A stretch of DNA of 64,000 nucleotides from Vicinamibacterales bacterium (GTDB taxonomy: Bacteria; Acidobacteriota; Vicinamibacteria; Vicinamibacterales; UBA2999), in the NCBI GenBank assembly GCA_036374815.1, contig DASUSZ010000130.1:2732-66731 (forward strand), read 5' to 3'. The stretch's first letter is position 1. Each line of letters begins with the position of its first letter. Positions 2,200-58,194 of this stretch are shown here, piece by piece. The notes under the pieces are model-generated. The model searched no databases. It had not been told where the DNA came from and worked only from the letters and a program-made list of their open reading frames with translations. The translations under genes and the position numbers were made by a program.

Positions 2200-3581
2200 G
2201 GAATCGGAATCTCCAGCGGCGTGCCGGGCCTGATCTGCGCGTTGCCGGTCCAGTGCAGGCGGCCGGCCGTCGGCCGGTAGCGGTCGTCGAGGCCGAACAG
2301 CGTATTCAGCCGCGTGAAGATCACCGGCGTCGTTGCCGGCCGGTCTTTCCGCGGGTAGGCGTGGACGCGAACGGCGGTGACGTTGTCGACGGTCGCGCCC
2401 ACGGGCAAGGGCACCGCGCCGCGGAAGCATCCATCACGCGCGATGCGGTATTCGGCGACGCCGCGATCGGCGGCAATCCATTTGTCGTTCACCTTGATCG
2501 AGAACGTCAGCGCGCGATTGCCGAGCGTGCCGCAGCCCTCGAGATACGCGTAGCGCCGCGGATCCGGAATCGTGCCCTTGCCGGGCGGCGGATCATCCGC
2601 GATCTTGGCCTCGCGCGTCAGCTCCTTCGATGCGACCGCATACGTCCAGGCGTTGGTGTCCATCACCATCTCGCGCGAGACGTCGGTGAGATTCACCAGC
2701 AGCGGCGCCGGCGCGTAACGAACGGTGGTGGTCCCGCGGTCGAGCACCATGTTGTTGTCGGTGCTGACCCATAGCAGCGGGTGCCGGCCTTCACGTTTGC
2801 CGGCAAACGGCAGGATCTCGTGTTCAGGGCCCTGCATGTCCTCGCTGACAATCGATCCGCCGGCGCCGAGCTCGACGCTGTAGACGTACTCGATGTCGGT
2901 GCTGCGGCCCCACGTCGCCATCAGCCGATCGACCGGCGTGCCGCCGTCTTCATTGGTGAAGATCACGGTGTAGCGGTAGCGCCTGCCCGCCGGCGCCTTT
3001 TCGACTTCGTACCACATCAGGATCGGCACGTCGGTGAACTTGCCGACGGTATTCGGACGCGCGTGGACGAACGGCGCCAGCGACAGCGCCTCGAAGCTGT
3101 CGGCGTCGGGTTCGATTTGATCGATCGATACCGTCCACTGCGCCGCGTTCGCGCCTGTGAGCGCCTTCGCCGTCAGCTCGGCATCCTCGGAGATGGCGAG
3201 CGAGTGCTTGCCGGCACCGACCAGTCCGAGCATCACGTCGTAATCGGCTTCGCCGCTCCTGACGATCGGCACATGGATCGGCGCGCGATCGTCGAGCGTG
3301 AGCTTGAGGACCACCGCCTCGGAGCCGGCCGTGTCCCACGCACACCGCTCGCACCGCACCTTCAGCCGCGCGATCGCCTCGACGTTTTCGGAGGAATCAA
3401 ACGCCGTGCGGAAAACGCCGTCGGCGATCGGCGCGGGCCGCGCCGGCCCGCAGCCAAGAAAGACGAGACCGGTGAGGACCAAAAACGCCGGGAGCTGGGA
3501 ACCGGGAACCGGGAACCGAGCGGCTCCCCGTTCCTGGCCGGCTCCCGGCTCCCGGCTCCCGGCTTGCGGCTTAGAAGCCAA
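2196..3581 (-). CDS. Hypothetical lipoprotein (about 460 aa), no family recognised
   Basis: Track ORF 2196..3581. A hydrophobic stretch ends in a lipobox-like LVFLGC. The only in-frame starts are TTG 3581 (overlaps the TBDR stop by 11 nt; the N-region then translates the heptamer repeat as AGSREPGAGQERG) and TTG 3482 (MVLTGLVFLGC). It sits between the TBDR and ABC genes in the same orientation. Confidence 0.6.
   Translation of the reverse strand: MASKPQAGSREPGAGQERGAARFPVPGSQLPAFLVLTGLVFLGCGPARPAPIADGVFRTAFDSSENVEAIARLKVRCERCAWDTAGSEAVVLKLTLDDRAPIHVPIVRSGEADYDVMLGLVGAGKHSLAISEDAELTAKALTGANAAQWTVSIDQIEPDADSFEALSLAPFVHARPNTVGKFTDVPILMWYEVEKAPAGRRYRYTVIFTNEDGGTPVDRLMATWGRSTDIEYVYSVELGAGGSIVSEDMQGPEHEILPFAGKREGRHPLLWVSTDNNMVLDRGTTTVRYAPAPLLVNLTDVSREMVMDTNAWTYAVASKELTREAKIADDPPPGKGTIPDPRRYAYLEGCGTLGNRALTFSIKVNDKWIAADRGVAEYRIARDGCFRGAVPLPVGATVDNVTAVRVHAYPRKDRPATTPVIFTRLNTLFGLDDRYRPTAGRLHWTGNAQIRPGTPLEIPIP
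3489..3563. repeat. Inverted heptamer arrays: GGGAGCT-(GGGAACC)x3, 22-nt spacer, (GGCTCCC)x3
   Basis: Read directly from the sequence: GGGAACC at 3497-3517 and GGCTCCC at 3540-3560. On the minus-sense RNA, GGGAGCC pairs with GGUUCCC with a G:U at the variable position. Confidence 0.9.
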
Positions 3582-7676: not shown

Positions 7677-7681
7677 CGCCG

Positions 7682-11576: not shown

Positions 11577-13763
<2,187 letters not shown>

Positions 13764-13768
13764 CCTCG

Positions 13769-14263: not shown

Positions 14264-14366
14264 GGTGTCTCCTGCCTTTGACACTGCAAGTCGTGTTCCG
14301 TGCAGTTCTGTCCTGCCCTGCTGCAAGGATTCGAAGCTCGCCCGTTCTAGGAATCAGGAGGACGAC

Positions 14367-15260: not shown

Positions 15261-15314
15261 CGTGCGCACAGGGTTGGCTGATGCCGAGGTATGATGGGTG
15301 CTTGCCGTCACGCC

Positions 15315-15409
<95 letters not shown>

Positions 15410-15487
15410 TCGCTCGGCCTTCGGCCTCGCTCGGCGGTTCGGTCGGGCTTCGGGATCAATCGCCGCTGCTTCGCAGCGTCGACAATA

Positions 15488-15508
15488 CGAATCCCTCCCT
15501 TGACGCCG
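15488..15508 (+). repeat. Partial direct copy of the tRNA-Ser 3' end
   Basis: CGAATCCCTCCCT (15488-15500) is identical to tRNA positions 15389-15401. The next 8 nt (TGACGCCG versus CACCGCCA) are partly conserved. Confidence 0.7.
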
Positions 15509-15599
15509 TGGCTCGCCTTCGGCGAGGCCACGAGCGGGAGCGATCCTGTCGGCATCGGATCTTCCCGGACTTCCCGACTGACTGCCGACTGGAGTCGCG

Positions 15600-16259: not shown

Positions 16260-16336
16260 GCCCGGGCAATGTAGTGCAAGAACTGCACCGGAACTCGCTT
16301 GAATTGCCCCGACTCAGCCGATAACCTTCGTAGCAC

Positions 16337-18439
16337 GTGCGACAGTCCGCCTCCCTGACGACAGCCGCTCGTTCGTGGTACGCCGCCAACGAGCTCATCG
16401 GCACGATCGTGCTGAATGTCGTCGTCGCCCTGGTGGCCTGGGGCCTCTCGGCGCTGGTGCTTGCCCCCACTGCGGGCGGCCGCGCGGTCACGCCGCTATG
16501 GCCTCCGGTCGGTCTTGCCGTCGCGCTCACTTACATCGGCGGCTACCGCCTGCTGCCGGGCATCGTGCTCGGCTCGCTCGCGCTCGGCCTCAGCTACAAC
16601 GCGTGGCCGCTGGCGATGATGATGGCGATTGCGCAGGTCGCCCAGCCGGTCGTCGATGTGCGGATCATGAAGGCGCTCGGATTCGATCCACGGCTCGAGC
16701 GCGTACGCGATCCGATCATCCTCTCGGTGATTGCCGGCCCTGCCGGGTCGTTTGCCGCGGCGCTGATCGCCGTGTCGCTGTCCTTCGCATTTGGCGCGCG
16801 CGCCGCCGACGCGCTGTGGTACGACTTCGTCCTCTGGTGGCTGCGCGACTGGCTTGGCGTGATGGTCACCGCGCCGCTGGTGTTCGCGTGGGTCTACGGG
16901 CGGCCGACGGCATGGACGTGGCCGCGCGTCGCCGAGATGATCGCGATGCTGCTGACGCTGTTCGCGGGCTCGCAGCTGATGTTCGGACTGTGGGGCATCT
17001 TCGCCACCCGCGATGTGCCGATCGCGTTCATCTTCTTTCCCATCGTCGGCTGGGCGGGCCTGCGCTTCGGCGCGCGCGGCTCAACGACCGTCGTCGCGAT
17101 GATCGCGGCGTTTGCGATCGCGATCGCCGGCATGGGCGTGGGGCCGTTCTCCGCGTTCCCCGTCGAGTTCACGCAGTTCCTGCTGTTCACGTTCCTCGCG
17201 CTCGGCTCGCTGAGCGGCCTGCTGCTGGCCGCGATCATGGCCGAGCGAGACGACGCGCTGCACAAGCGGCTGGTGCTCGAGGAGCAGCTGCGCCACTCGC
17301 AGAAGATGGAGGCGGTCGGTCGCCTCGCCGGCGGCATCGCGCACGACTTCAACAACCTGTTGACGGCGATCATCGGCTACACCGAGATCGTGCTGACCTC
17401 GCTCGATCCGAAAGACGATCGGCGCGCCGACGCGGAAGAGATCGGCCGCGCGGCGATGCGCGCCGCGGATCTGACGCGCCAGATGCTCGCGTTCAGCCGC
17501 CGGCAGGTGCTGCAGCTGAAAGTCATCGACCTCAACGTCGCGCTCAGCAAGGTCGAGCCGATGCTGCGCCGCGTGATCGGCGAAGACATCGTGATGACCG
17601 TGACCGGCAAGGCGACCAACGCCTTCGTGCGCGTCGATCCGGGCCAGGTCGAGCAGGTGGTGATGAACCTGGTCGTCAACGCGCGCGATGCGATGCCGAA
17701 AGGCGGACGGCTGACGGTCGAGACCGCCGACGCGGTGCTCGATGATGCGGCGCTGGCCGATTCGCCCGATGCGCGTCCCGGGGCCTACGTCCTGTTGTCC
17801 GTCTCCGACACCGGCATCGGCATGTCGCCCGAAGTGCGCGCGAGGATCTTCGAGCCGTACTTCACGACCAAGGACGTCGGCAAGGGCACCGGCCTCGGTT
17901 TGTCGACGGCCTACGGTATCGTGCGGCAAAGCGAAGGGCACATCTCGGTGTCGAGCGAGATCGGGCTGGGCACGACGTTCCGCATTTACCTGCCGCGGTC
18001 CGAAGCGCCGCAGCAAGTGGCGACGGAAGTCGCCGGCGAGAAACTGCCGGAAGGCAACGAGCACATCCTGCTCGTGGAAGATGACTCATCCGTGCGGCGG
18101 CTTTCGAAGGAACTGCTCGTCCGCCTCGGCTATTCCGTCACCGAAGCCGCGTCAGGCCGCGCCGGACTCGCGCTCGGCAGCGACGACACGAGGCATTTCG
18201 ATCTGGCGCTCTGCGATGTCATTCTTGGGGACATGAGCGGTCCTGCCGTAGCCGAAGCGTTAAGTGCGCTCCGGCCGTCGATTCGTGTGCTGTATATGTC
18301 AGGTTATACCGACGAGGCGATCGTCAAGACCGGCGTGCTCGACGAGGGCAAGCCGTTCCTGCAGAAACCGTTCACACCGATGCAGCTTGCGAAGAAAATT
18401 CGCGAAGTGCTCGACGAGCCGGAGACCGGATCGCTGTGA
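16337..18439 (+). CDS. MASE1-domain hybrid sensor histidine kinase / response regulator
   Basis: Track ORF 16337..18439 (GTG start). It has a MASE1-like multi-TM N-terminus ([28 protein letters not shown]), an H-box ([20 protein letters not shown]), an HATPase block (DTGIGMS...[11 protein letters not shown]) and a C-terminal REC ([12 protein letters not shown]...[14 protein letters not shown]). Confidence 0.85.
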
Positions 18440-21237
18440 TTGGCGAAACCATTTCTCACTACAAGATCCTGTCCCGCCTTGGCGCCGGCGGGATGGGCGT
18501 CGTCTACGAGGCCGAAGACACGCGGCTGGGCCGCAAGGTGGCGATCAAGTTCCTGCCCGACGAGGTCAGCGCGGACGCCGACGCGATCCAGCGGTTCCAG
18601 CGCGAAGCGCGCATCATTTCGAACCTCAATCACCCTCACATCTGCGTGCTCTACGACATCGGTGTTCATGACCACCGCCATTTCATGGTCATGGAGCTGC
18701 TCGACGGCCAGTCGCTGAAGGATCGCATTGCGCGCGGCGTCGTGCCGGCGGACGAAGCACTGGAGCTGGGCTCGCAAATCGCCGCCGCGCTCGAGGCGGC
18801 CCACCAGCAGGGTGTCGTTCATCGCGACATCAAGCCCGCGAACCTGTTCATCACCCGCCGCGGGATGATCAAGGTGCTGGACTTCGGCATCGCCAAGCCA
18901 AGCAACGCGGGTCAGGCGGATCGCATGGTGGAAACCATGGGATCCGACCGACTGACGACGATGGGAACGACGGTTGGGACGGTGGCCTACATGTCGCCCG
19001 AGCAGGCGCGCGGCCACGAGATCGACGCGCGCAGCGACGTGTTTTCAGCGGGCGTTGTCCTCTATGAGATGGTCACCGGCCAGTTGCCTTTCCAGGGCGC
19101 AACCCTCGGCGCGATTTTCGAGAGCTTGCTGACGAAGGAGCCCGCGAAGCCATCGCGGCTGAATACGAATCTGCCGCCAGCAATCGATCGCGTCATCCTC
19201 GAAGCGCTCGAGAAGGATCCTGATCTTCGGTATCAGTCGGCGGCTGACCTGCGCGCCGCGATCAATCGGGTCCGACGTGCCGCCGAATCCGACAAGGTCG
19301 CAACCGCCGCTGCTGCGTCGGCGAAGCGCGGCTGGCTGAAGCCGGTTGCGATCGGCGCGCCGCTGTTGACGGCGCTCGCGGTGGGCGGGTTCTTCTTCTA
19401 TCAATCGATCAACACGCCGGCGCTCACCCAGAAAGACAGCGTCGTGCTCTCGTCGGTCGTCAATCGCACCGGCGACGCGATGTTCGACGACACGCTCGGT
19501 GAAGCGCTCGCGCTGCAGCTGCGGCAGTCGCCGTTCCTGAACGTCGTGCCGGAACAGCAGGTGCAGGCCACGCTCCGCTTGATGGGCCGGGAGCCGACCA
19601 CGCCGATCACCGCGGAATTGGGGCGCGAGATCTGCCAGCGCGCCGGCGCGAAGGCGTTGCTCGGCGGCACGATCGCGATGCTCGGATCGTCCTACGTGAT
19701 CACGCTCAACGGCCAGGACTGCGTGGCAGGCAACGTGATCGCGGAGGAGCAGGCCCAGGCATCCTCGAAAGAGACGGTGCTGGCGGCGATGGGCGCCGCG
19801 GTTTCGAAGTTCCGTGAAAAGCTGGGCGAGTCGCTCGCCTCGATTCAGCGTTACGACGCGAAGATCGAAGAAGCCACGACGCCGTCTCTGGAAGCCTTGA
19901 AGGCCTACAGCCAGGGCCTGCGCACGCGGCGCACCACCGGTGATTTCGACTCGGTGCCGTTCTTCGTTCGCGCCATCGAGCTCGACGACGAGTTCGCGCT
20001 CGCCTACGCGCGGCTCGGCACGGTCTACGCCAATCTCGGGCGGACCGACGACTCGAAGAAGATGACCACGCGCGCCTACGAGCTGCGTGACAAGGTCAGC
20101 GACGCGGAGCGGTATTACATCGAAGCGCGCTACCACTCGACCGTCGGCAACGACGTGCAGAAGGCGCTCGATGTTTACAAGGTGTGGCTGGCGACGTACC
20201 CCAACGATTACACGGCGTTGACCAACTCGGCGCTGCTGCACAAGCGACAGGGCGATCGCGAGGAAGCGATTCGCAAACTCGAGCTCGCGACGAAGGTCGC
20301 GCCCGACCAGCCGGTGGCCTTCACGAATCTCGGCCAGACCTATTTCGAAGCCGGGCAGCACGACAAGGCGAAGCAGGCCTACGAAAGCGCGATTCTGCTG
20401 CTCGATTCGACCAGCGCGCGGGTGGGTTTATACCAGAGCGCCGTCCTGCTGGGGGATCAGGCGCTCGCCGATCAGCAGGCGGCGGCGGTGCAGGGCCGCC
20501 GCGACGAAATCGACATGATCGGCATCCGCCTGTTCGCCGCGACCTATCGCGGACGCATGCAGGAGGCGTCGCAGCTCTTCGACGACTATCAGGCCCGCGC
20601 GCTCGCGCTCAGCCGGCCGCAGGCCGCATCGAATGCGGTGATGCAGCTCGCCATCAGCGAGGCGGTTGTCGGTCTAGGCGAACGCGCGCAGGCGCGCGTC
20701 GACAAGGCGGTGGAGGACGGCATCCTGGGTGACGGCGTGTTCGACGACCGGCTGGTGCTGGCCGCGCTGACGAAGGATGCGGCCACCGCGCGTGAGCTGT
20801 ACGCGAAGGCGCTCGAAGAGCAGAAGAAAAATGCGCAGGCCGGAGACAGCGGGCCTGAGGGCGTGCGCGCCGTCGAGGCGCTCGTCAAGCTCGCCGAAGG
20901 CAAGGCCGCTGAAGCGGCGGCGACGGTCGAGCCGGTGTCGTTCCGGCCGTCGCTCCAGGATGTCATCAGCATCTGGACGCTCGCGAAGATGGAGGCGGGC
21001 GATCGCGCGTCGGCTGAAAAAGGTTTGACGTGGCTGGTGTCCAAAGATGCGCGCAGTGGTTTGTCTTCGTCGACCGCGTGGGTCTACGCGTCGCTCGCGC
21101 GTTTGCACGCCAAGGCGGGAAACACCGCTGAGGCCCGCAAGAACTACGACAAGTTCTTCGATCTCTTCAAGGATGCGGATCCTGATTTGCCGCTGCTCGT
21201 GCAGGCCAGGGAAGAATTCGCCAAGCTCGGTTCGTGA
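18436..21237 (+). CDS. Ser/Thr protein kinase (Hanks type) with one TM and a TPR-rich C-terminal region
   Basis: Track ORF 18436..21237. It contains GAGGMGVVYEA, VAIKFL, HRDIKPANL, DFGIAK and SPEQ, then a TM (VAIGAPLLTALAVGGFFFY) and TPR-like repeats. GTG 18436 forms a GTGA overlap with the kinase stop. Confidence 0.9.
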   Translation: MIGETISHYKILSRLGAGGMGVVYEAEDTRLGRKVAIKFLPDEVSADADAIQRFQREARIISNLNHPHICVLYDIGVHDHRHFMVMELLDGQSLKDRIARGVVPADEALELGSQIAAALEAAHQQGVVHRDIKPANLFITRRGMIKVLDFGIAKPSNAGQADRMVETMGSDRLTTMGTTVGTVAYMSPEQARGHEIDARSDVFSAGVVLYEMVTGQLPFQGATLGAIFESLLTKEPAKPSRLNTNLPPAIDRVILEALEKDPDLRYQSAADLRAAINRVRRAAESDKVATAAAASAKRGWLKPVAIGAPLLTALAVGGFFFYQSINTPALTQKDSVVLSSVVNRTGDAMFDDTLGEALALQLRQSPFLNVVPEQQVQATLRLMGREPTTPITAELGREICQRAGAKALLGGTIAMLGSSYVITLNGQDCVAGNVIAEEQAQASSKETVLAAMGAAVSKFREKLGESLASIQRYDAKIEEATTPSLEALKAYSQGLRTRRTTGDFDSVPFFVRAIELDDEFALAYARLGTVYANLGRTDDSKKMTTRAYELRDKVSDAERYYIEARYHSTVGNDVQKALDVYKVWLATYPNDYTALTNSALLHKRQGDREEAIRKLELATKVAPDQPVAFTNLGQTYFEAGQHDKAKQAYESAILLLDSTSARVGLYQSAVLLGDQALADQQAAAVQGRRDEIDMIGIRLFAATYRGRMQEASQLFDDYQARALALSRPQAASNAVMQLAISEAVVGLGERAQARVDKAVEDGILGDGVFDDRLVLAALTKDAATARELYAKALEEQKKNAQAGDSGPEGVRAVEALVKLAEGKAAEAAATVEPVSFRPSLQDVISIWTLAKMEAGDRASAEKGLTWLVSKDARSGLSSSTAWVYASLARLHAKAGNTAEARKNYDKFFDLFKDADPDLPLLVQAREEFAKLGS

Positions 21238-23998: not shown

Positions 23999-26098
23999 TC
24001 AAAAGTAGAAGCTCGCGACGATCAGGAGCCACACGAGATCGACGAAGAGCCAGTACTTCCGCGTCGCATCGATGCGCGCCAGCCACCGCTCTCGATCGTC
24101 GGCCGCCATGCTGAACCCAGGTCCGGCCAGCCAGCCCGTGAACACGGCGCCGCCGAGAACGTGCGCGGCGTGCACGCCGGTCAGCGTAAACCAGCACGCC
24201 CACATCAAGTTGGTCGACGGCAGGATGCCGTTGCCGAGCAGCGCGGCATCGTTCAACACTTTCATGATCACGAACGTCAGGCCGAGCGTGTTGCTGACGA
24301 CCAGCTGGCTGCGCTTCGCGCCGAACGCCGCGCTCGCGCCGACCAGTAATACTGTCTCGAGCCACGGAAACCCGCCGACCGGCCCCGGCCAGCTCGCCGC
24401 CCCGGCGCGCAGCATGACGTAGCCCGAAAACAGCGACGCAAACAGCATCACCTCCGACGCAATAAACAGCCAGATACCGAGCTTCGCGCGCCGGGATCCG
24501 GGATCCGGGAGATGGGAACCGGAATTCGCTTCCGGTTCGCGCTTCCCGGTTCCCGCTTCCCGGTTCCCGGTTCCCGGCTCCCGTCGTGTTCGCGCGAGCA
24601 ACAGATTCACGACGAATGGAATCTGAAATAGACCGAGCGCGAACGCGGCATATGTCATGTGGGTCTGCCATTGCAGCGTCGGCTGCGCGTGCGCGTAACT
24701 GGCGCCCGCGTCCCACAAGCGGCGATTCACGCCCATCAGGCCGATCGCGAACATCGGCATGAAGATCAGATTCATGCACACGAACGATCCCCAGAAGTGA
24801 ATCTTGCCGAGCATCTCGTCGAGCGATCGGCCGGTGATCGTCGGGAACCAGTAATAGATGCCGGCGAACAGCGCGAACACCGTGCCCGGTGCGACGAGAT
24901 AGTGAAAGTGGCCGACGACGTAATAGGTGTCGTGCAGCGTGACGTCACTCGCGGCCAGGCCAAGCGGCAGGCCGGTCAGCCCGCCGATGCCGAACATCGG
25001 CAGGAAGGCGAGCGCGAACAGCATCGGCGTGTTGAACGTGATCGAGCCGCCCCACAGCGTCAGCACCAAAGACGAAATCAAAATCACCGACGGTATCGAA
25101 ATGATGAACGTCGTCACCTGGAAGAACCCGGTCAGCGTGGTGCCCATGCCCGTCAGGAACATGTGATGCGCCCAGACGACCATCGACATGCCGCCCATGA
25201 ACAGCACGGCCGACACCATCAGGCCGTAGCCCCATAACGGCCGCCGCGCATTCGCGGTGATCACTTCCGACACGATGCCCATCGCCGGCAGGATCAGCAC
25301 GTAGACCTCTGGATGTCCGAGGAACCAGAACAGGTGCTGCCAGAGCAGCGGATTGCCGCCACCCGCCACGCCTTGCAACGGCACCCCGCCAACCATCAGC
25401 CCACTCGGCAAGAAAAAGCTCGTGCCCGCGACGCGATCCATCAACTGGAAGATCGCGGCTGCCTGCAACGCGGGAAACGCGAGCAACAACAGCAGTGCCG
25501 TGATCAGCTGCGACCAGACGAAGAACGGCATCTTCGCGAGCGTGATGCCGGCCGCGCGGCCGTGCGCAATGGTCACGATGACGTTGATCGCATTCAGCGC
25601 CGACGATACGCCGATCAGGAAAATGCCAATCAGCCAGAAATTCTGTCCGGTTGTTTCGATCACGGCGAGCGGCGCGTACGAGGTCCACCCCGATCGCGCG
25701 GCGCCGCCTTCGACGAAAAAGCTCGCGACCATGATCAGGCCGGCCGCGAGGTACAGCCAGTAGCTCAGCGCGTTGAGACGCGGGAACGCCATCTCCGGCG
25801 CGCCGATTTGCAGTGGGACGAAATAGTTGGCGAACGCCCCGGCGGCCAGCGGCACCACGGCGAGGAACACCATCACGCTGCCGTGCATCGCCACGAGCTG
25901 GTTGTAGAACTCCGGCAGCATGATGCCGCCCGGTGCGTTGGATTCGCCGACAAAGAAGGTGATCCACGCGGGCATCGGCTGGCCGGGCCAGGCCAGTTGC
26001 CATCGCATCAGGATCATCAGCAGGAAGCCGACCAGCAGGAAGAAGAGGGCCGTGATGCCGTACTGCAGGCCCACGGTCTTGTGGTCGGTCCACCGCAC
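23999..26098 (-). CDS. ctaD: Cytochrome c oxidase subunit I fused to subunit III (A-type heme-copper oxidase)
   Basis: This is the 3' 700 codons of track ORF 23999..27046. Subunit I blocks: WFLGHPEVYVLILP, VWAHHMFLTGMG, HDTYYVVGHFHYLV. After a repeat-encoded linker comes a subunit III-like part (LGIWLFIASEVMLFASLFSGY...FTLTGVHAAHVLGG...YWLFVDLVWLLIV). The start is GTG 26098 (MRWTDHKTVGLQYG). Sequence further upstream overlaps the divergent M61 gene. No in-frame stop or start separates the two parts. Confidence 0.85.
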   Translation of the reverse strand: MRWTDHKTVGLQYGITALFFLLVGFLLMILMRWQLAWPGQPMPAWITFFVGESNAPGGIMLPEFYNQLVAMHGSVMVFLAVVPLAAGAFANYFVPLQIGAPEMAFPRLNALSYWLYLAAGLIMVASFFVEGGAARSGWTSYAPLAVIETTGQNFWLIGIFLIGVSSALNAINVIVTIAHGRAAGITLAKMPFFVWSQLITALLLLLAFPALQAAAIFQLMDRVAGTSFFLPSGLMVGGVPLQGVAGGGNPLLWQHLFWFLGHPEVYVLILPAMGIVSEVITANARRPLWGYGLMVSAVLFMGGMSMVVWAHHMFLTGMGTTLTGFFQVTTFIISIPSVILISSLVLTLWGGSITFNTPMLFALAFLPMFGIGGLTGLPLGLAASDVTLHDTYYVVGHFHYLVAPGTVFALFAGIYYWFPTITGRSLDEMLGKIHFWGSFVCMNLIFMPMFAIGLMGVNRRLWDAGASYAHAQPTLQWQTHMTYAAFALGLFQIPFVVNLLLARTRREPGTGNREAGTGKREPEANSGSHLPDPGSRRAKLGIWLFIASEVMLFASLFSGYVMLRAGAASWPGPVGGFPWLETVLLVGASAAFGAKRSQLVVSNTLGLTFVIMKVLNDAALLGNGILPSTNLMWACWFTLTGVHAAHVLGGAVFTGWLAGPGFSMAADDRERWLARIDATRKYWLFVDLVWLLIVASFYF
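24490..24583. repeat. Heptamer (GGGAWCC/GGGARSC) arrays in inverted arrangement around a 9-bp perfect hairpin core, inside the ctaD I-III linker
   Basis: The plus strand reads CCGGGATCCGGGATCCGGGAGATGGGAACCGGAATTCGCTTCCGGTTCGCGCTTCCCGGTTCCCGCTTCCCGGTTCCCGGTTCCCGGCTCCCG. The core is GAACCGGAA-TTCGC-TTCCGGTTC (24516-24538). It is translated as REPGTGNREAGTGKREPEANSGSHLPDPGS. Confidence 0.9.
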
Positions 26099-36395: not shown

Positions 36396-38108
36396 ATGCA
36401 TCCCATCGACTGGGCGATTCTCGTCGGGGTGATGGCGTGGATCGTCTACGACGGTCTCAAGCGCACCAAGGGCCGCGACGAGCTCGAAGGCTACTTCCTC
36501 GCCAATCGCAGCATCCCGTGGTGGGCGGCGGGCCTGTCGGTGATGGCGACGCAGCTGTCCGCGATCACCATGATCGGCACGACCGGCCAGGGCTATTCGT
36601 CCGGCATGAGCTTCGTGCAGTTTTATTTCGGCCTGCCGCTGGCGATGGTGGTGCTGTCGCTGACACTGGTGCCGTTCTTCTATCGCGCACGCGTCTACAC
36701 CGCCTACGAGTACCTCGAGCGCCGCTTCGACGCGAAGACGCGATCGCTGACCAGTTTTCTGTTCCTGCTGCAGCGCGGCCTGTCGTGCGGCGTCATCATC
36801 TCGGCGCCGGCCGTGGTGATGTCGATCATCCTTGGCCTCGACGTCACCACGACGGCGTTCGTGATCGGTGTGCCGGCGATCGTCTACACGGTGTTCGGCG
36901 GCGTGCAGGCGGTGACGTGGACCGACGTCAAGATCATGGTGCTGATCGTCGGCGGCCTGCTGGCGACGGCGGTGCTGCTGGTCGTCGGCCTCCCCGACAC
37001 CGTGGGCTTTGGCGATGCGCTGCACCTGGCCGCGATCACGGGCCGGCTCGACACGCTCAACTTCACGTTCGATTTGAACCAGACCTACACCGTCTGGTCG
37101 GGACTGATCGGCGGCCTGTTCCTGATGCTGGGGTATTTCGGCGCGGACCAGAGCCAGGTGCAGCGTTACCTGACCGCGCAGTCGCTGCACGCGGCGAAGC
37201 ATTCGCTGCTGATGAGCGCGTACTGGAAGATCCCGCTGCAGGTGCTGGTGCTGCTGGTCGGCATCCTCGTCTACACGTTCTACATCTTCACGCCGGCGCC
37301 GATGCTCTTCAACAGGGTGCACGAAGAGCGCGTCGCGCGCAGCGAGCGCGCCGGCGAGTTCTCGCAGCTGCAGCAGCGGTTCGATGCGACGGTGGCAGCC
37401 CGCCGCGCCGCGGCACAGCAGGTGGTGACCGCCGACACTCCGGAGAGCCAGGCGGCGTACCTGAAACTGGATGCGGACTTGCAGGCGGTGCGCAGCGAGG
37501 CCGCCACGCTCGTCAAGGAAACGTCCGGCGATCGCAACTACAACGACGCGAATTACGTGTTTCCGACGTTCATCGCCACGCAGCTGCCGATCGGGCTGAT
37601 CGGCTTGATGATGGTCGCGATCATCCTCGCGGCCACGGACTCGATCGCCGCGGAGCTCAATTCGCTGTCGACCGCCACGGTGATCGATTTCTACAAGCGC
37701 TACGTGAAGACCGAAGCATCCGACGGACACTACCTGATGGTGTCGAAGTGGGCGACGGCCTTCTGGGGCCTGTTCGCAAGCATCGTCGCGATCTGGGCCA
37801 GCGAGCTGGGCTCGCTGATCGAGGTCGTCAACCGCTTCGGCTCGTATTTCTACGGCTCGATTCTCGGCGTTTTCATCCTGGCGATCGGCTGGCGCCGCGC
37901 CAACGGCACCGGCGCGTTCATCGGCGTGCTCGGCGGGCTTGGCCTGGTGATGTACGCGGCCTCGACGGGCATCTCCTTCTTGTGGCTGAACCTCGTCGGC
38001 GCGGTCGGCGTGTTCGTGATCGGGATGATCGTCAGCGAGATCACGCGAGCGGGGAGCGGGGAGCCGGGAACCGGGAGGCGGGAGCCGGGAACCGGGAGCC
38101 GGGCATGA
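36396..38108 (+). CDS. Sodium:solute symporter (SSF) family transporter
   Basis: Track ORF 36366..38108, trimmed to ATG 36396 (MHPIDWAILVGVMAW). It has about 13-14 TM helices and the SSF block YFGADQSQVQRYLTA. The C-terminal tail GSGEPGTGRREPGTGSRA is encoded by the heptamer repeat. Confidence 0.9.
   Translation: MHPIDWAILVGVMAWIVYDGLKRTKGRDELEGYFLANRSIPWWAAGLSVMATQLSAITMIGTTGQGYSSGMSFVQFYFGLPLAMVVLSLTLVPFFYRARVYTAYEYLERRFDAKTRSLTSFLFLLQRGLSCGVIISAPAVVMSIILGLDVTTTAFVIGVPAIVYTVFGGVQAVTWTDVKIMVLIVGGLLATAVLLVVGLPDTVGFGDALHLAAITGRLDTLNFTFDLNQTYTVWSGLIGGLFLMLGYFGADQSQVQRYLTAQSLHAAKHSLLMSAYWKIPLQVLVLLVGILVYTFYIFTPAPMLFNRVHEERVARSERAGEFSQLQQRFDATVAARRAAAQQVVTADTPESQAAYLKLDADLQAVRSEAATLVKETSGDRNYNDANYVFPTFIATQLPIGLIGLMMVAIILAATDSIAAELNSLSTATVIDFYKRYVKTEASDGHYLMVSKWATAFWGLFASIVAIWASELGSLIEVVNRFGSYFYGSILGVFILAIGWRRANGTGAFIGVLGGLGLVMYAASTGISFLWLNLVGAVGVFVIGMIVSEITRAGSGEPGTGRREPGTGSRA
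38052..38103 (+). repeat. Seven tandem heptads GGGAGCG GGGAGCC GGGAACC GGGAGGC GGGAGCC GGGAACC GGGAGCC (+GGG)
   Basis: Read directly. It is a direct (not inverted) array on the sense strand and ends 2 nt before the ATGA junction at 38105-38108. Confidence 0.9.
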
Positions 38109-38203
38109 ATCGCCCGTTGCTGATCGCGCTCTTCGCGGTGATCGCCGTGATGGTTGCGTCGTGGACGCTTGGCGAATTTTTGCGGCAGCGTAAAGATAAG
38201 TAG
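38105..38203 (+). CDS. 32-aa single-TM mini-protein downstream of the symporter
   Basis: Sequence MNRPLLIALFAVIAVMVASWTLGEFLRQRKDK. Its ATG forms an ATGA overlap with the symporter stop. It is visible as the last 32 residues of the alternative-frame track ORF 36437..38203. Confidence 0.45.
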   Translation: MNRPLLIALFAVIAVMVASWTLGEFLRQRKDK

Positions 38204-38673: not shown

Positions 38674-38925
38674 ATGGCACGACTACTCCCAGCGACCGAT
38701 CGGCCCAGACAGGCTCCCCGAAGCCGTTTCTGGCCACGTGTTTTCAAGACCGTCAGCGTGACGTCGATCACCCTCGCGCCGGTCGCGGCGATGTCGTTGT
38801 GGCTGTTGATGAGCGATGCCGTGCTCGCGGAAGAAGTGATGGAGCGCGGCGATCTCCTGCCGGTGGTCAAAGCTCTCGCGAAGGTGATCGGCAAGGCCGT
38901 CATGGCCGCGATGTCCGCTCTTTAA
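38674..38925 (+). CDS. Hypothetical small protein (start uncertain)
   Basis: Track ORF 38611..38925. Only the 3' two thirds has the high GC3 of local genes (from about ...KTVSVTSITLAPVAAMSLWLLMSD). It has one hydrophobic helix and no recognised motif. Its stop TAA is the first unit of the (TAAGCCCC)6 repeat. Confidence 0.3.
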   Translation: MARLLPATDRPRQAPRSRFWPRVFKTVSVTSITLAPVAAMSLWLLMSDAVLAEEVMERGDLLPVVKALAKVIGKAVMAAMSAL

Positions 38926-38972
38926 GCCCCTAAGCCCCTAAGCCCCTAAGCCCCTAAGCCCCTAAGCCCCTA
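38923..38972. repeat. (TAAGCCCC)x6 perfect tandem octamer plus partial TAG
   Basis: Read directly: six perfect units at 38923-38970. The first TAA is the stop of the plus-strand ORF. The final CTA (38970-38972) is the TAG stop of the minus-strand DUF5916-like gene. Confidence 0.95.
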
Positions 38973-41207
38973 GAACCTGAACGTCCGCACGATCTTCGCC
39001 GCGCCTCTTCGATCGAGCGTCTGAAGTCTTCGACCGGTCTCGAAATCCAACCAGTTCTGCGTCCAGATGAAGAAGACGTCGTTGCCGGGCTTCTGAATCC
39101 ACCGGAAGCGCAGCTGCCATCCGATCTCGCGGCTTTCAGAGTCGTACTGAATGTTGTTGCTCAGCGAGATCCACGGGCTGAACTGCGTGCGCGCGTCGAT
39201 GCGATAGAGCTTCGTCGTAAACGATCCCTGCGGCAGGTTGACGTCGTTGAACTCGCTCGACAACTGCACCGAGATGCCCGGCCGCGGCCGCAGCGTGAGA
39301 TCGAGATTCAACTCGCGCCGATCGCCGTTCCAGAAATCGCCGAACGAAAACTCGACGCGGCCCGACAGCGCGCGATGCTCGGCGCCGTCGTAGACGAACT
39401 GGTAGCGCAGCCAGTCGTAGCTGCTGCCGGCCGGCAGGATTACACCGTCGCTGATCTCGAACTCCTCGTCGAGGTTCTCGGTCTGCTTGAACATCTGGAA
39501 CTCGATGCTGTCGCCGCTGTGGAATTCGATCTCCATCGGCGTCAGCTGCACGTTGCGATCGATCACCTGGTTGTCGAGATTCAGGTTGATGTCGGCGCCG
39601 GTGCTGATCTCGATGCCGCGGATCCAGCGATGGCCGCTGAAGCGCGGCGACCAGTTGAACTCCGGGTTCCAGCTGCGATAGTCGCGCCGCGGCGTGAAGC
39701 CGATCGCCGGATCGTAGGCGGGCTGCACTTCCCTGAACGACATCTCCGCGCGATACGGGTCCTTCGACACGCTGCCGTGCCAGCCGTAGGAATAGCTGGG
39801 ACCTTCAGGTGGCGTCAGACCGTCTTCGGAAATGAACCGGGGTTTCGAGGTGTGCACGAACCAGGCGCCGGAGTCGAGCGTCGACCCGCGGATGAAATCG
39901 GGCGTGGCGATGGTCACATCGGCGCCCGCCGTATGGCGCGCGTCGACGAGCGAATCGCGCGGCGCCCGCCGCGTGTAGATCGCGCCCGCGCTCGACTGGC
40001 TGCCGAATCGCCGCCGCACCCGCGCCACGGTGAAGTCCTCTCCCTTCAACTGCACGGGCAGGTTGCCGCGCTCGAACTCCTCTTCGCTCGTGCTGACGTG
40101 TAGAAAGCCGATGTCCTGCCGTCCGAGCTGTCCGACCAGCTTCGCACCGTAGAGAATCGGCTGCGGCGCGCCGGCGTTGAGACCGATGCGGCGGCTGAAG
40201 AACGGGCTCTCATCGCCGCCGGGGAACTCGAAGAAGTTCGAGCCGTCGAGAAAGAACTCGCGCTTCTCAGGAAAGAACAACGGAAAGCGCGTCAGGTTGG
40301 TCCGCCGCTCATCGACTTCCGTCTCGGCAAAGTCGGTGTTGACGGTGAAGTTCGCCTTGAGCGACGGCGTCACGTTGTAGAACACGTCGAGGCCGGCGTC
40401 CGCGTCGCCATCGGTATCGGGCGAGTTTCTTCCCGGCGCGTTACCCGCCGCGCCAAGCAGATACGGTTTGAGGTCGAGTCCGATCCCCTGCGAGATGCCG
40501 CTGATGCCGGCGACCCGTCCCGCGTTCGACATCCGCGTCAGGCCCTCATCGCGCAGCCATCCGGTCCACAGGCTTTCTTCGTTCTTGCGCTTCACCGTGC
40601 GCTGAAAGTTGGCGCCCCACGTATCGGTGTCGGGATTGAAGTTCACCGTCTTGAACGGCACTTCGATTTCCGCCGTCCACCCCGCGCCCGTGCGCCGCAC
40701 CCGCGCCAGCCAGATGCCGTCCCACGATTTCTCCATCTCGCCGCCGAAGCCGCGCCCGCCGGTCGGGCTCGTGATCAGTCCGTCGCCCATCGCGCCCGAC
40801 GGATTGATCTCGAAGAAGTAACCGGTGCGGCCGTCGAGAAACGGATCGATCGTGAACATGAATCGATCGTCGGCCTCGAATGGCTGATCGCGCTGCATCT
40901 GGTTGCCGAGCAGCTGGTCCGGCTCCGAGTCGAAGCACGTAACGCCGAGGATGATCCGATCGCGATCGAAGACGACGCGAACTTCGGTGCGCTCGGTGGC
41001 CGGGGTGCCGTTGTCGGGATCGCGCTGAAGGAAATTCGTTGCCGGCGGCGCGTTTTGCCACGCCGCTTCATCGGGCGCGCCGTCGATGACGATCGATTCG
41101 CTCTCAGCAAGACGATGAGCGCGAATCTCCGGGCGCGTCGATTGCGCGGCGGTTACAGACACGCCGGCAAGCCACAACACCAGAGATACAATTACCCGGT
41201 TAATCAA
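38970..41207 (-). CDS. CBM9-like / DUF5916-like secreted protein (paralogue of 28010..30571)
   Basis: This is the 3' 745 codons of track ORF 38970..41711. The start is TTG 41207 (MINRVIVSLVLWLAGVSVTAAQS signal). It contains IVIDGAPDEAAWQNAPP...FLQRDPDNG...DPFLDGRTGYFFEINP...WDGIWLARV and ends KIVRTFRF. Confidence 0.8.
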   Translation of the reverse strand: MINRVIVSLVLWLAGVSVTAAQSTRPEIRAHRLAESESIVIDGAPDEAAWQNAPPATNFLQRDPDNGTPATERTEVRVVFDRDRIILGVTCFDSEPDQLLGNQMQRDQPFEADDRFMFTIDPFLDGRTGYFFEINPSGAMGDGLITSPTGGRGFGGEMEKSWDGIWLARVRRTGAGWTAEIEVPFKTVNFNPDTDTWGANFQRTVKRKNEESLWTGWLRDEGLTRMSNAGRVAGISGISQGIGLDLKPYLLGAAGNAPGRNSPDTDGDADAGLDVFYNVTPSLKANFTVNTDFAETEVDERRTNLTRFPLFFPEKREFFLDGSNFFEFPGGDESPFFSRRIGLNAGAPQPILYGAKLVGQLGRQDIGFLHVSTSEEEFERGNLPVQLKGEDFTVARVRRRFGSQSSAGAIYTRRAPRDSLVDARHTAGADVTIATPDFIRGSTLDSGAWFVHTSKPRFISEDGLTPPEGPSYSYGWHGSVSKDPYRAEMSFREVQPAYDPAIGFTPRRDYRSWNPEFNWSPRFSGHRWIRGIEISTGADINLNLDNQVIDRNVQLTPMEIEFHSGDSIEFQMFKQTENLDEEFEISDGVILPAGSSYDWLRYQFVYDGAEHRALSGRVEFSFGDFWNGDRRELNLDLTLRPRPGISVQLSSEFNDVNLPQGSFTTKLYRIDARTQFSPWISLSNNIQYDSESREIGWQLRFRWIQKPGNDVFFIWTQNWLDFETGRRLQTLDRRGAAKIVRTFRF

Positions 41208-41225
41208 GCCACCTATGATACGTGC

Positions 41226-54126: not shown

Positions 54127-54141
54127 GCGCCAAGCCAAGCG

Positions 54142-54165
54142 GCTGGCCGCAGCGGCCAGCTTTTT
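54142..54165 (+). terminator. Rho-independent terminator
   Basis: GCTGGCC-GCAGC-GGCCAGC followed by TTTTT (54161-54165), 16 nt after the stop at 54126. Confidence 0.65.
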
Positions 54166-54188
54166 AACTTTCTATTTTCAGTTTTTAA

Positions 54189-54224
54189 CTGCCGCGGGCC
54201 GACGCCCGTGGCGGGAGCTTTTTT
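54189..54224 (+). promoter_or_regulatory. Second hairpin plus U6 immediately upstream of the TBDR start; partly sequesters the GGGAG Shine-Dalgarno
   Basis: CTGCCGCGGGC-CGAC-GCCCGTGGCGG (about 11 bp including G:U pairs), then GAGC TTTTTT ATG. The GGGAG at 54213-54217 overlaps the 3' base of the stem. The 9-mer TTTTTAACT occurs twice (54161-54169 and 54182-54190). Confidence 0.4.
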
Positions 54225-56867
54225 ATGCGTACGTTTCGTCTTTGTGTCTTTCTGTCTGCGATAGCGCTTGCCGCTTCGGCGTCCGCGGCCACCATCAGCG
54301 GCGTCATTACCGACAGCAGCGGCGCGGCGTTGCCGTCGACGCGCGTCGTTCTCAAGTCACTCGCCAGCGGCGAGGAAACGATTGTTGAAACCGATGCGTC
54401 CGGCCGTTACACCTTCGACGTGGCGGGCACGGGTTCGTATCTCGTGATTGTCAGCCGCCCCGGATTCTCCGAGGCCGCCCGCACCGTCGTGATCGATTCG
54501 GCGGAGCGCACCTTCGATCTGCCGCTGTCGCTCGAGCTCGGCGTGTTGAGCGACCAGGTGACGGTCACCTCGAGCCGCGGCGATCGCGAGGTCCGGCAGA
54601 TTCCGCTGCACGTCGAGACGCTGTCGCGCGCCGGCATCGAGCAGAGCAACGTGCTCTCGACCGGCGATGCGCTGGCCAGCGCCGTCAACGTCACACCCGT
54701 CGGCAACGGGCCGTTCGGCGTCCGTCCGCGGCTGCGCGGTCTCGATTCGACGCGCATGCTCGTACTGGTCGACGGCGAGCGGCTCAACACCGCGCGGCAG
54801 GCGACCGATCGCACCGGCGCGGAAGTCGGCTTGATCGCACCCGACACCATCAGCCGCGTCGAGATCATCAACGGCGCAGGAACGCTGATGTACGGATCCG
54901 ACGCCCTCGCCGGTACGGTCAACATCATCACCAACGAGACGGCGTTCTCGCCGACGCGGCAGCTCCAGTACGGCTTCAACGGCTTCTACAGCTCCAACGA
55001 GAACGGCATGCGCGGCACCGTGACGCTCGGCGGGTCGTCGCCGCGGGCCACGTTCCGGATCCAGGCCGGCGCCGAGAAGTACGATAACTACCAGGCCGGA
55101 TCGTTCGACCTCGAAGACACGCGTCCACTCTACGCGGATGGCACGCTGCGCCAGGCCGACACGATCGACACGAACTTCGGCTTCAACTTCCGCGCCTTCC
55201 CCGACCCGTTCAACCAGCCGTTCGTGCGCACCGATGCGGAGATCTTGAACTCGCAGGCCGAGGGCAAGTTCGTCAACGCCTCGGGCCTCTTCAAGCTCGG
55301 TGATCGCCGCACGCTGCGTCTCCGCTACCAGAGCCGCCGGATGGAGAACATCGGCTTCCCCGACTTCGAGCAGCCCTACTTCTTCAACGACACGTCGCTG
55401 CCGCACAGCAATCTCGACAAGTTCTCGGCGCGCTATGAAGCGCGGTCGCTCACCCCGTGGCTCGCCAACCTCTCGCTCACCGCGTATTACCAGCGCACCG
55501 AACGCCTGCTGCGCACGACGCTGCCGATCCAGTTCCCGGCCCCGACCGCGGGAGCCTTCTTCCCGATCTCGGTGTTCCGTCTCGACATCCTGTCCGACAC
55601 CGAGCAGCGGGTCTGGACACCTGGCGTCGATCTCAATGCCGTGTTCGTGCCGGCCAAGGATCACTTGCTGACGACCGGCGTCACCTTCTATCGCGATCGC
55701 AGCAGCGATCAGCGGACGACGACGACGCAGATGTCGCTGCTGGGACAGGTGGCGCTCGGCGCCCGCGGCCCGGCGCCCGTGGTGTTCCCTTCGCCGGTCG
55801 CCATCGGGCCGCCGGCGATCGCACACCCGGTCCGCGTGCCGGACGCGAGCCTTCGCGATGTTGCGGTGTTCGCGCAGGACGAGTGGCGCGTCAGGCCGTC
55901 GCTGTCGGTCGTCGCCGGCCTGCGCGGCGACTTCTATACGGTGGTCACCGAAGCCACGCCGGGCTATGACGTGCAGGCGGTGATCGGCAACGCCACGCCG
56001 GCGATCGATCAGAGCAAGCTCCCCGATCCGAACGGCGCCACCTATTCGCGCAACGCCCTCACCGGCGACATCGGCATCGTCTCGAATCCGGATGGCGCCA
56101 TCAACCCGTTCGTCCGATTTGGCCGCAGCTACCGCCATCCGAACCTGGAGGAAATGCTGTTCGCGGGCACGGCGACGAGCGGCAGCCTCCTGCCGAACGT
56201 CACGGTCGAGCCCGAAACCGGCAACAACTTCGATGCGGGCGTGAAGTTCCGCGCCGGCTCGTTCAGCGGCGGCGCTTACTACTTCCTGAACCAGTATCAG
56301 AACTTCATCGCGCAGGATCTCGTGGTCGCCAGCAACGCTGCCGGTCCGCTCGCCCAGGCGCGCAACTTCGGCAACGTGCGCGTCACCGGCGTCGAGCTGT
56401 CCGGCGCGATGCCGATCACGCTGCGTCCCGGAGTGCTGACGCTGACCGGCTCGGCGGCGCTGACGCGCGGCACGATTCGCGAGGGCACCAACCCCCTCGA
56501 CAACAGCTCGCTCGCCGACACGCCGTTCGACAACATCACGCCGTCGAAGGTGATCGCCAACGCCCGCTTCACGCAGTCGCGCGGCCGCTGGTGGGTTGAG
56601 TACGGCGTGCGCGCGCAGGGCGAAGTCAGGCGCGTCGCCGCCACGCTGCTCGACTCGCCGTTCCTGATCGCGCAGGACCTGCTCTCGCTCGACGGCTTCG
56701 CCGTGCATCGCGCCGGCGCCGGCATCAACCTGTCGAGCGGCCGGAACCGCGCGGCGTTGACCTTCGCCGTCGAGAACCTTGCCGATCTCTACTACCGTGA
56801 GCACTTCCAGTTCGCGCCGTCGCGCGGCCGGAGCTTCACGATCGGGCTCAACGTCGGAGCGTTTTAG
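54225..56867 (+). CDS. TonB-dependent receptor with N-terminal carboxypeptidase-regulatory-like domain
   Basis: Track ORF 54225..56867. It has a signal peptide (LCVFLSAIALAASASAA), a CarboxypepD_reg-like block (ISGVITDSSGAALPSTRVVLKS...GSYLVIVSRPGF), a plug (GLDSTRMLVLVDGERLN) and the C-terminal FTIGLNVGAF. Confidence 0.9.
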   Translation: MRTFRLCVFLSAIALAASASAATISGVITDSSGAALPSTRVVLKSLASGEETIVETDASGRYTFDVAGTGSYLVIVSRPGFSEAARTVVIDSAERTFDLPLSLELGVLSDQVTVTSSRGDREVRQIPLHVETLSRAGIEQSNVLSTGDALASAVNVTPVGNGPFGVRPRLRGLDSTRMLVLVDGERLNTARQATDRTGAEVGLIAPDTISRVEIINGAGTLMYGSDALAGTVNIITNETAFSPTRQLQYGFNGFYSSNENGMRGTVTLGGSSPRATFRIQAGAEKYDNYQAGSFDLEDTRPLYADGTLRQADTIDTNFGFNFRAFPDPFNQPFVRTDAEILNSQAEGKFVNASGLFKLGDRRTLRLRYQSRRMENIGFPDFEQPYFFNDTSLPHSNLDKFSARYEARSLTPWLANLSLTAYYQRTERLLRTTLPIQFPAPTAGAFFPISVFRLDILSDTEQRVWTPGVDLNAVFVPAKDHLLTTGVTFYRDRSSDQRTTTTQMSLLGQVALGARGPAPVVFPSPVAIGPPAIAHPVRVPDASLRDVAVFAQDEWRVRPSLSVVAGLRGDFYTVVTEATPGYDVQAVIGNATPAIDQSKLPDPNGATYSRNALTGDIGIVSNPDGAINPFVRFGRSYRHPNLEEMLFAGTATSGSLLPNVTVEPETGNNFDAGVKFRAGSFSGGAYYFLNQYQNFIAQDLVVASNAAGPLAQARNFGNVRVTGVELSGAMPITLRPGVLTLTGSAALTRGTIREGTNPLDNSSLADTPFDNITPSKVIANARFTQSRGRWWVEYGVRAQGEVRRVAATLLDSPFLIAQDLLSLDGFAVHRAGAGINLSSGRNRAALTFAVENLADLYYREHFQFAPSRGRSFTIGLNVGAF

Positions 56868-58161: not shown

Positions 58162-58194
58162 CCGTAAGCCCGTAGGCCCGTAAGCCCGTAGCCC
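58162..58194. repeat. Octamer tandem repeat CCG TAAGCCCG TAGGCCCG TAAGCCCG TAGCCC abutting the tetR ATG
   Basis: Read directly. The array ends at the base before ATG 58195. No purine-rich Shine-Dalgarno is present. Confidence 0.9.

Follow-up and report, generated by a model that had tools for sequence, protein, structure and literature searches.

A perfect octamer array flush with two convergent stop codons in a Vicinamibacterales contig: a probable lineage-specific insertion of a dispersed G-rich repeat

Why should the whole gap between two convergent genes be filled by perfect copies of one G-rich octamer, and why should that octamer supply the stop codons of both? The array that raises this question lies in a 64,000-nt stretch of a contig from a soil Vicinamibacterales bacterium (the window; G+C ∼65%), and our answer is that it is probably a lineage-specific, copy-number-variable insertion of a dispersed G-rich octamer repeat, akin to the quadruplex-capable 7-nt repeats of Xanthomonas and Nostoc. 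Tandem Repeats Finder (TRF) reports positions 38923-38972 as a perfect tandem array, (TAAGCCCC)x6.25, with a period of 8, 6.2 copies and 100% matches; the C-rich strand is the plus strand, and (GGGGCTTA)n is read on the minus strand. The sequence around it is ctcttTAAGCCCC(x6)TAgaacc, positions 38918-38975 consisting of ctcttTAAGCCCC followed by five further TAAGCCCC and TAgaa. The octamer TAAGCCCC occurs exactly six times in the 64 kb, always inside the array, as compared with 0.36 occurrences expected from dinucleotide shuffles, and a two-unit 16-mer probe gave five exact matches where shuffles predicted 0.12.

The array spans the entire 44-nt gap between the convergent stops and overlaps both stop codons: the TAA of the plus-strand gene (38923-38925) is its first three bases, and the TAG of the minus-strand gene (CTA at 38970-38972) combines the final C of the array with TA. 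A preliminary description had six perfect octads running from this TAA to the TAG of a DUF5916-like gene, filling the gap and supplying both stops, and the sequence and TRF bear it out. Because the plus strand of TAAGCCCC arrays has a TAA every 8 nt and the minus strand a TAG at the same spacing, all frames are covered by three consecutive units, and a stop stands in all six frames within 24 nt. Any ORF entering the array therefore ends within 24 nt, so a change in copy number leaves both proteins unaltered. This bears directly on whether the array might be a phase-variation (contingency) repeat that switches a neighbouring surface protein. Its copy number does vary, as described below, and the adjacent DUF5916 protein is of outer-membrane type, but the array follows both stop codons, at two 3' ends and not in a promoter or 5' coding region, and with stops in every frame no copy number changes either ORF; we regard such switching as extremely improbable.

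Both flanking genes are real. The plus-strand gene (38674..38925) encodes a conserved hypothetical membrane-like protein of 83 aa; a Pfam search with it gave no match, and its family comprises 238 protein clusters. Among the best 120 of these 238, every member is 83 aa long except one of 84, and those labelled with an organism are Vicinamibacterales except one labelled Cyanobacteria. Of the 52 nucleotides that differ between this gene and its orthologue in contig L001, 33 are third positions of codons, and both genes stop at the same position. Orthologues convergent to a DUF5916 gene are found in L088, L089, L090, L093 and L094, and the order YciI-like gene, small 83-aa gene, DUF5916 gene recurs in related contigs. 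Exact-protein look-ups found the 83-aa protein and a shorter YciI product on record; the YciI product from the first ATG gave no match, nor did two DUF5916 start variants.

The minus-strand gene (38970..41207) belongs to the outer-membrane-type DUF5916 family (45.3 bits in Pfam, cut-off 22.6). Its protein has 581 metagenome relatives, many of which align through residue 476, the last residue, and its C-terminus, ...KIVRTFRF*, is conserved to the final residue in hundreds of metagenome homologues. Translation probably starts at the TTG at 41207, which is preceded by AGGTGG; a longer ORF reaching 41711 is an artefact of the ORF listing, and in the alignment with L001 a different gene stands from 41214 onward. 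To judge from these comparisons, the plus-strand TAA and the minus-strand TAG are both working stop codons, and the gene ends are ancestral.

The junction between the two genes takes many forms in relatives. Its commonest state is a pair of overlapping stop codons (cttTAGaacc or ctCTAGaacc), with CTAG or TTAG and no spacer, as in L135, L168 (where the small protein is 94% identical to that of the window), L171 and contigs of P0123 and P0128. Spacers, where present, measure 11 nt in L088, ∼31 nt in L089, 44 nt of non-repetitive sequence in L169 and ∼92 nt in L001. The spacer of ∼56 nt in L093 is nearly filled by (TTAGGGTC)n (TRF, 6.8 copies at 95%), that of ∼100 nt in L090 holds a hairpin of inverted heptamer-like arrays (−64.9 kcal/mol, z −10), in the 153-nt spacer of L170 inverted 13-mer arrays make up a hairpin (−81 and −99 kcal/mol, z −12 and −16), and that of ∼190 nt in L094 holds a palindromic element. 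Since overlap is the most frequent state, we read overlapping stops as likely ancestral and the array as a derived insertion; the direction of gain is taken from frequency, and overlap could also arise by a full, scar-free contraction of the array. The flanks of the L171 junction (cttTAGaacctgaacgtccgcacgatcttcgc) are identical to those of the window, which amounts to an L171-type junction in which CTT and TAG are parted by exactly 48 nt of (TAAGCCCC)6. The array is thus most simply seen as a 48-nt lineage-specific insertion that would alter neither protein.

That the array changes in length is apparent from L002, a farmland metagenome contig with 99.19% identity over 1238 nt, in which two mismatches and one 8-nt gap leave five copies as compared with six in the window. 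The L093 unit TTAGGGTC is one base different from the octamer of the window, and all of its copies share that change. Both observations favour the earlier suggestion of ongoing homogenisation, and the comparison of relatives that had been proposed along with it yields six copies versus five at 99.2% identity and none in the overlapping-stop lineages. Slipped-strand mispairing would keep the copies perfect. Neither L168 nor L171, however, has a local seed for TAAGCCCC, so slippage in place fails to explain how the array first arrived. Purifying selection acting on the two conserved C-termini would leave just such a flush fit, and the insertion of this all-frame-stop repeat into overlapping stops is one of the few that selection would pass.

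The array might instead be the footprint or cargo of a mobile element, or a set of protein-binding sites. The insertion coincides precisely with a CTAG/TTAG site and is bordered by TA on either side, and one unit occurs at many loci per genome (see below), as such an origin would have it. The apparent TA duplication is uninformative, however, because TA is part of every unit. There are no terminal inverted repeats and no transposase nearby, IMG/VR gave one match to the octamer as compared with three and one for composition-matched control octamers, and no candidate for a binding protein emerged; we consider an origin or role of this sort very unlikely. Three further classes were rejected. A CRISPR array has repeats of 23-50 nt with unique spacers, whereas these 8-nt units stand head to tail without any; a REP or MITE has a palindromic unit or terminal inverted repeats, whereas this is purely a direct repeat that matches nothing in Rfam and lacks an inverted partner within 120 nt; and a telomere repeat stands at the end of a linear replicon, whereas the array is interstitial and the genes beside it keep their synteny in more than 10 related contigs.

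We then consider what the array might do once transcribed. The minus-sense RNA would carry (GGGGCUUA)x6, as the preliminary description had it, and its reading of this as a quadruplex pattern agrees with the energy model: the 50-nt G-rich RNA is predicted at −33.2 kcal/mol with a four-layer G-quadruplex (G4) and at −14.3 kcal/mol without the G4 term (ViennaRNA), and in a 153-nt context the values are −72.9 and −52.1 kcal/mol, the G4 term contributing ∼19-21 kcal/mol. Without that term the G-rich RNA folds no better than shuffled sequences (z −0.70). The C-rich plus-sense RNA is less structured than 191 of 200 shuffles (z +1.55), which tells against the further proposal that the array is a bidirectional, structure-based terminator; any effect on the plus strand would need another route, such as Rho loading. 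The 78-nt segment of the plus strand from 38920 has a C/G ratio of 3.09, the maximum over both strands of the 64 kb. A role as terminator or RNA cap is best treated as a hypothesis, with termination plausible on one strand.

An intrinsic (Rho-independent) terminator was rejected: there is no stable hairpin (z −0.7 and +1.55), no U-tract or T-run follows the array on either strand, and a terminator pattern scan reports no site there. Rfam gave no match around the array at E≤1, and at gathering thresholds only a tRNA in the window. The premise that U-tract terminators are rare in this genome holds in part. Of three stretches scanned, two have hairpin-plus-U-tract matches at close to chance level (12 versus 10.6 expected and 14 versus 12.8), and the third, positions 1-20000, has about twice as many as expected (20 versus 11.5). 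The need for a terminator at this junction is doubtful in any case, because five related lineages have overlapping stops with no spacer.

Besides the main array, the window has a single variant octamer array as well as several arrays of GGGARCC heptamers (GGGAACC/GGGAGCC). The variant octamer array (58162..58194, plus strand; CCGTAAGC/CCGTAGGC x4.2 by TRF, equivalent to TAAGCCCG/TAGGCCCG) was found with the 16-mer of the main array at three mismatches. Its last base directly precedes the ATG (58195) of a gene of the TetR family (TetR_N and TetR_C_13 domains in Pfam), to which its G-rich strand is antisense. On the minus strand, inverted heptamer arrays (GGGAGCC)n/(GGTTCCC)n at 3488..3564 (TRF and folding) are predicted to form a hairpin followed by U5 (−65.9 kcal/mol, z −6.0), 7 nt downstream of the stop codon of a gene (3571-6855, minus strand) for a TonB-dependent receptor.

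The octamer itself is dispersed. When one genome per GTDB species was scanned for runs of at least three perfect units, it was found at 84 places, mostly in a few Acidobacteriota and Bacteroidales MAGs. One Vicinamibacterales MAG has eight loci, two Thermoanaerobaculia MAGs have five and six, and other Acidobacteriota MAGs have 4, 3, 2, 1 and 1; four Bacteroidales MAGs have 5, 5, 6 and 10, and a fifth has one. Single or double array matches also occur in Actinomycetota, Planctomycetota, Verrucomicrobiota, Cyanobacteria, Proteobacteria and Hymenobacter. The flanking units of these arrays are often one-base variants (e.g., CCCTAAAC, CCCTAGGC and CCCCAAG). Four or more C3+ tracts are present in 81 of 86 extended arrays, and tract number among these 86 is broadly distributed with a mode of six, in a sample preselected for at least three perfect copies; the array of the window has six GGGG tracts. 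When the window was compared with the GTDB array loci by tblastx, only distant matches were found, and a linker common to the Bacteroidales composite arrays was rejected, an exact search having placed the sequence in L079 only.

These arrays show preferences of position and strand, within the limits of crude ORF calls in 8-kb loci. When arrays are oriented by the C-rich strand, a simple ORF caller places 35 between convergent, 37 between tandem and 4 between divergent genes. At 54 of 89 arrays an ORF of at least 100 aa that ends within −33 to +21 nt of the array reads in the sense of the G-rich strand, and at 22 in that of the C-rich strand (two-sided binomial p ∼3e-4, to be read with the caution that arrays in one genome are not independent). 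TAG is the stop of 41 of the 54 G-sense ORFs, many of which end in an array-encoded ...GLGA*, and where arrays have inverted partners the G-rich arm is always 5' (10 versus 0). The orientation bias could reflect the direction of replication instead of transcription.

A rival reading is a dedicated structure-based terminator or RNA-stabilising cap, in which a G4 that ends or protects the DUF5916 mRNA, together with a C-rich tract that recruits Rho, would insulate the convergent genes from each other in a genome poor in hairpin-plus-U terminators. The G-rich-sense orientation at stops (54 versus 22, and 10 versus 0 in inverted pairs) and the depletion of arrays between divergent genes speak for it, as do the G4 predicted in the minus-sense RNA, the extreme C/G ratio of the plus strand, the clade's repeat-built hairpins at gene 3' ends (one of them followed by U5), and the near-chance frequency of classical terminator matches in two of the three scanned stretches. 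In Xanthomonas and Nostoc, moreover, transcripts start or stop at G4-capable repeats somewhat more often than at controls, in a study that left the function of the repeats open (Rehm et al., PLoS One 2015; PMC4692102). However, the stops overlap without a spacer in at least five related lineages, copy number differs between near-identical strains, and the 50 nt of the array fall short of the 70-80 nt usually quoted for a rut site.

The same GTDB loci also hold more than 100 other 7- or 8-nt arrays of unrelated units (e.g., AGTTTTGC, AATTCAT and CATTAGCA), and those whose units lack G-runs are found 18 times between convergent and 4 times between divergent genes. Because G-run-free arrays share this convergent excess, the positional bias is not specific to quadruplex-capable units, which is a further point against a dedicated terminator or cap; on balance we consider one rather unlikely. 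Arrays of 7- and 8-mers are rare in 307 kb of DUF5916 loci, mostly from unrelated organisms, so that the tendency to carry them appears to be clade-specific.

Observations of this kind speak for a neutral, selfish or mutationally driven repeat that has no effect on expression and owes its 3'-3' location to selection having removed other insertions. The array is lineage-specific and variable, relatives fill the junction with many unrelated sequences, the genomes hold many unrelated 7/8-mer arrays that likewise avoid divergent regions, and the rarity of such arrays in unrelated DUF5916 loci points to a mutational tendency of the clade. Yet pure tolerance does not predict a strand preference relative to the abutting gene, nor does it predict the recurrence of one octamer at many loci in several phyla. 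We think complete neutrality quite possible, though short of probable.

A lineage-specific insertion of a dispersed, copy-number-variable octamer repeat remains the reading that we prefer, and its course may have been as follows. Once in place, the array would persist because a convergent 3'-3' junction is the least harmful site for such a repeat, all frames being stopped. In the DUF5916 transcript, and on the non-template DNA strand, (GGGGCUUA)6 can form a G-quadruplex immediately downstream of the stop codon, where it could make RNA polymerase pause or stand in the way of 3' exonucleases. To the transcript of the small gene the array would add an unstructured, extremely C-rich and G-poor tract resembling a Rho-loading site. 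Whether either effect has been selected is a separate matter. A selected role in forming or stabilising transcript 3' ends has in its favour the strand rule and the hairpins that repeats build at other gene ends of the clade; the five lineages without any spacer at the junction argue against it. Such a role seems to us conceivable but doubtful; otherwise the array is a tolerated passenger. Bolder still would be to group the stop-codon-abutting (GGGGCUUA)n arrays with the hairpins that repeats form in these genomes, as a distinct multi-phylum class of 3'-end elements, spread to new gene ends by templated insertion and terminating or stabilising transcripts through G4 formation on the G-rich sense strand and Rho loading on the C-rich strand. 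This we consider improbable, although if true it would provide hairpin-free insulation of convergent genes.

The main value of the locus lies in a natural allelic series of 0, 5 and 6 copies with identical flanks, in which the effects of a 3'-UTR quadruplex in bacteria can be studied. The array also shows, in a clean natural case, how a sequence can enter between overlapping stops with neither protein changed, and even as a tolerated microsatellite only it would still be a useful strain marker. If the rules of strand and position are functional, they would extend an unexplained observation made in Xanthomonas and Nostoc in 2015 to Acidobacteriota and Bacteroidales, and would offer a test case for whether bacterial RNA polymerase or RNases respond to 3'-UTR quadruplexes and for how identical short arrays reach many loci.

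Among systems already described, several resemble the array in part. A literature search for the octamer in any rotation returned incidental primer-like strings only. REP/BIME-type elements at gene 3' ends have been linked to mRNA stabilisation and termination (PMC3733652). Like the array they are short, dispersed 3'-end elements, but REPs are imperfect palindromes with hairpins, whereas the array is a direct repeat whose hairpin potential does not exceed chance (z −0.7). For Rho utilization sites, RhoTermPredict applies a criterion of C/G >1 over 78 nt, the mean in E. coli being 1.6 (PMC6407284). The plus-sense RNA, with a C/G of 3.09 over 78 nt, is likewise rich in C, poor in G and unstructured, and starts at the point of ribosome release; the resemblance is one of composition only, and a rut site takes up ∼70-80 nt whereas the array alone has 50. 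At the mitochondrial CSBII, transcription termination is reportedly G-quadruplex-dependent, in work attributed to Wanrooij et al. of 2010 and 2012. There, a quadruplex of G-rich nascent RNA or non-template DNA stops the polymerase without a hairpin or U-tract, as might happen at the array, but the polymerase is a different one and the element a single G-run pair, whereas the window presents a tandem array to a bacterial RNA polymerase.

Other precedents are dispersed direct repeats, and a general survey of prokaryotic satellites is one more. TAACTGA repeats have been described in Beggiatoaceae and Bacteroidetes alongside the STRR heptamers of cyanobacteria (MacGregor 2015; PMC4679880). These are species-characteristic 7-nt direct repeats at many intergenic sites, with a patchy distribution over phyla that include Bacteroidetes and Cyanobacteria, much like the octamer family; TAACTGA repeats, however, lie mostly just upstream of start codons and are not G4-capable, whereas the array of the window lies between two stops. 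Nearest are the GGGAATC and GGGGA(C/T)T heptamer repeats of Xanthomonas and Nostoc, which form scattered arrays of 2-26 units, intergenic for the most part and variable among close relatives, lie near or overlap stop codons with the G-rich strand coding, are rare between divergent ORFs, occur in some cases as tandemly inverted pairs, show a preference for four units, and form G4 as judged by CD (Rehm et al., PMC4692102).

With this class the array shares tandem units of 6-9 nt with a G-tract of at least three (here GGGGCTTA x6.25, perfect), at least four G-tracts (here six GGGG tracts), and a copy number that varies among close relatives (here 6 versus 5). The octamer family, crude as its ORF calling is, shares the stop-codon and G-sense preference (54 versus 22) and the scarcity between divergent genes (35 convergent versus 4 divergent). 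Many dispersed and mainly non-coding loci per genome are typical of the class, and related genomes of the octamer family have 5-10, the source genome being known from 64 kb. Within the window, the array at 58162-58194, with its G-rich strand antisense and just before a TetR start, fits the second preferred position of the class, and the GGGAACC/GGGAGCC heptamers resemble its unit. The differences are that the unit here is an octamer, GGGGCTTA, with four-G tracts and flush with two stop codons, in place of a heptamer; that the hosts are Acidobacteriota (Vicinamibacterales and Thermoanaerobaculia) and Bacteroidales in place of Xanthomonas and Nostoc; that the four-unit peak is absent from the octamer sample, which was preselected for at least three perfect copies; and that G4 formation, shown there by CD, is predicted here by an energy model. 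The sequence-level features of the class that could be judged are present in the array or its family, and we have little doubt that it is a slippage-maintained variable repeat of this kind.

The junction at which the small gene and the DUF5916 gene meet 3' to 3' acquires repeat-built structures repeatedly. Long hairpins occupy the orthologous site in two relatives, one made of inverted tandem 13-mers, ACGAAGGTTCAAR/TGAACCACCGTCA (L170, 1053-1205), and the other of inverted tandem arrays of CACGGAA-type units (L090, about 2930-3020), with folding energies relative to shuffled sequences (z) of -10 to -16. Alignment of the related contig L001 (1242-1456) with the window (38926-41213) revealed that in this relative, about 85% identical to the window, the DUF5916 gene has been deleted save for a 3' remnant of ∼130 bp, which still terminates in ...KIVRTSRF*; the genes flanking the deletion are kept on both sides.

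Among loci recovered by the GTDB genome scan for the octamer, those from Vicinamibacterales MAG sequence (L017, L019, L033, and L073) usually follow a single order: stop codon, G-rich octamer array of the GGGGTCCT or GGGCTTAA type, GAAGAA-like loop, and C-rich (CCCTAAGC)n array. This order produces imperfect long hairpins and thereby gives either member of a convergent gene pair a G-rich arm on its sense strand.

Within the window, the minus-strand gene for a TonB-dependent receptor (3571-6855) is followed 7 nt past its stop by heptamers arrayed in inverted orientation, (GGGAGCC)n/(GGTTCCC)n (3488-3564), whose hairpin has a folding energy of -65.9 kcal/mol (z -6.0) and runs into UUUUU; this element is a predicted intrinsic terminator built from tandem repeats. 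The window has few convincing classical terminators, and these include two strong hairpin-plus-T-run matches in succession on the plus strand (54141-54214), directly upstream of another TonB-dependent receptor gene (54225-56867).

Heptamer arrays are also found inside coding sequence. A similar inverted-array hairpin (24491-24583; -79.3 kcal/mol, z -6.9) lies within an unbroken ORF, where it encodes a linker (…REPGTGNREAGTGKREPEANSGSHLPDPGS…) joining a COX1 domain to a downstream membrane segment that we judged, from its translation alone, to be COX3-like. This may be a once-intergenic hairpin that is now read through, resulting in a gene fusion. A one-armed array, GAGCCGG x8.1 (38047-38108), codes for the final ∼19 residues of a sodium:solute symporter (…RAGSGEPGTGRREPGTGSRA*). 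The symporter stop and the start codon of a 32-aa ORF (38105-38203) overlap as ATGA, and the gene calls in L001 and in the 99.2%-identical metagenome contig L002 include this ORF as well.

A second octamer array related to the main six-copy one, CCGTAAGC/CCGTAGGC x4.2 (58162-58194), ends one base before the ATG of a TetR-family gene (58195), and its G-rich strand is the antisense strand of that gene. On the opposite strand, TTGACA-17-TAGTAT (58158-58130), a good -35/-10 match, lies 4 nt from the start of this array.

In three Bacteroidales MAGs (L013, L049, and L065), arrays encode ORF tails with similar C-terminal residues (…IRGLGV*, …IRGLGA*), a likeness that suggests the array-tailed genes are homologous; if so, the array would sit at the same gene end across species, where it would provide the C-terminal residues together with a TAG stop codon. 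The Bacteroidales MAG CAVVXI01 (L079, 7260-7560 and 1990-2310) carries composite "arrays of arrays," in which several tandem arrays with different units are stacked, always in the order [ATGAATT]n-[AGTGACT]n-[ACTGCAAA]n-[CCCTAAGC or CCCTAAAC]n, and stop about 25 nt upstream of an ATG. Non-repeat linkers are common to two composite copies within one locus. A similar order is seen in L065, L049, and L057, and such modular repeat stacks are, to our knowledge, previously undescribed.
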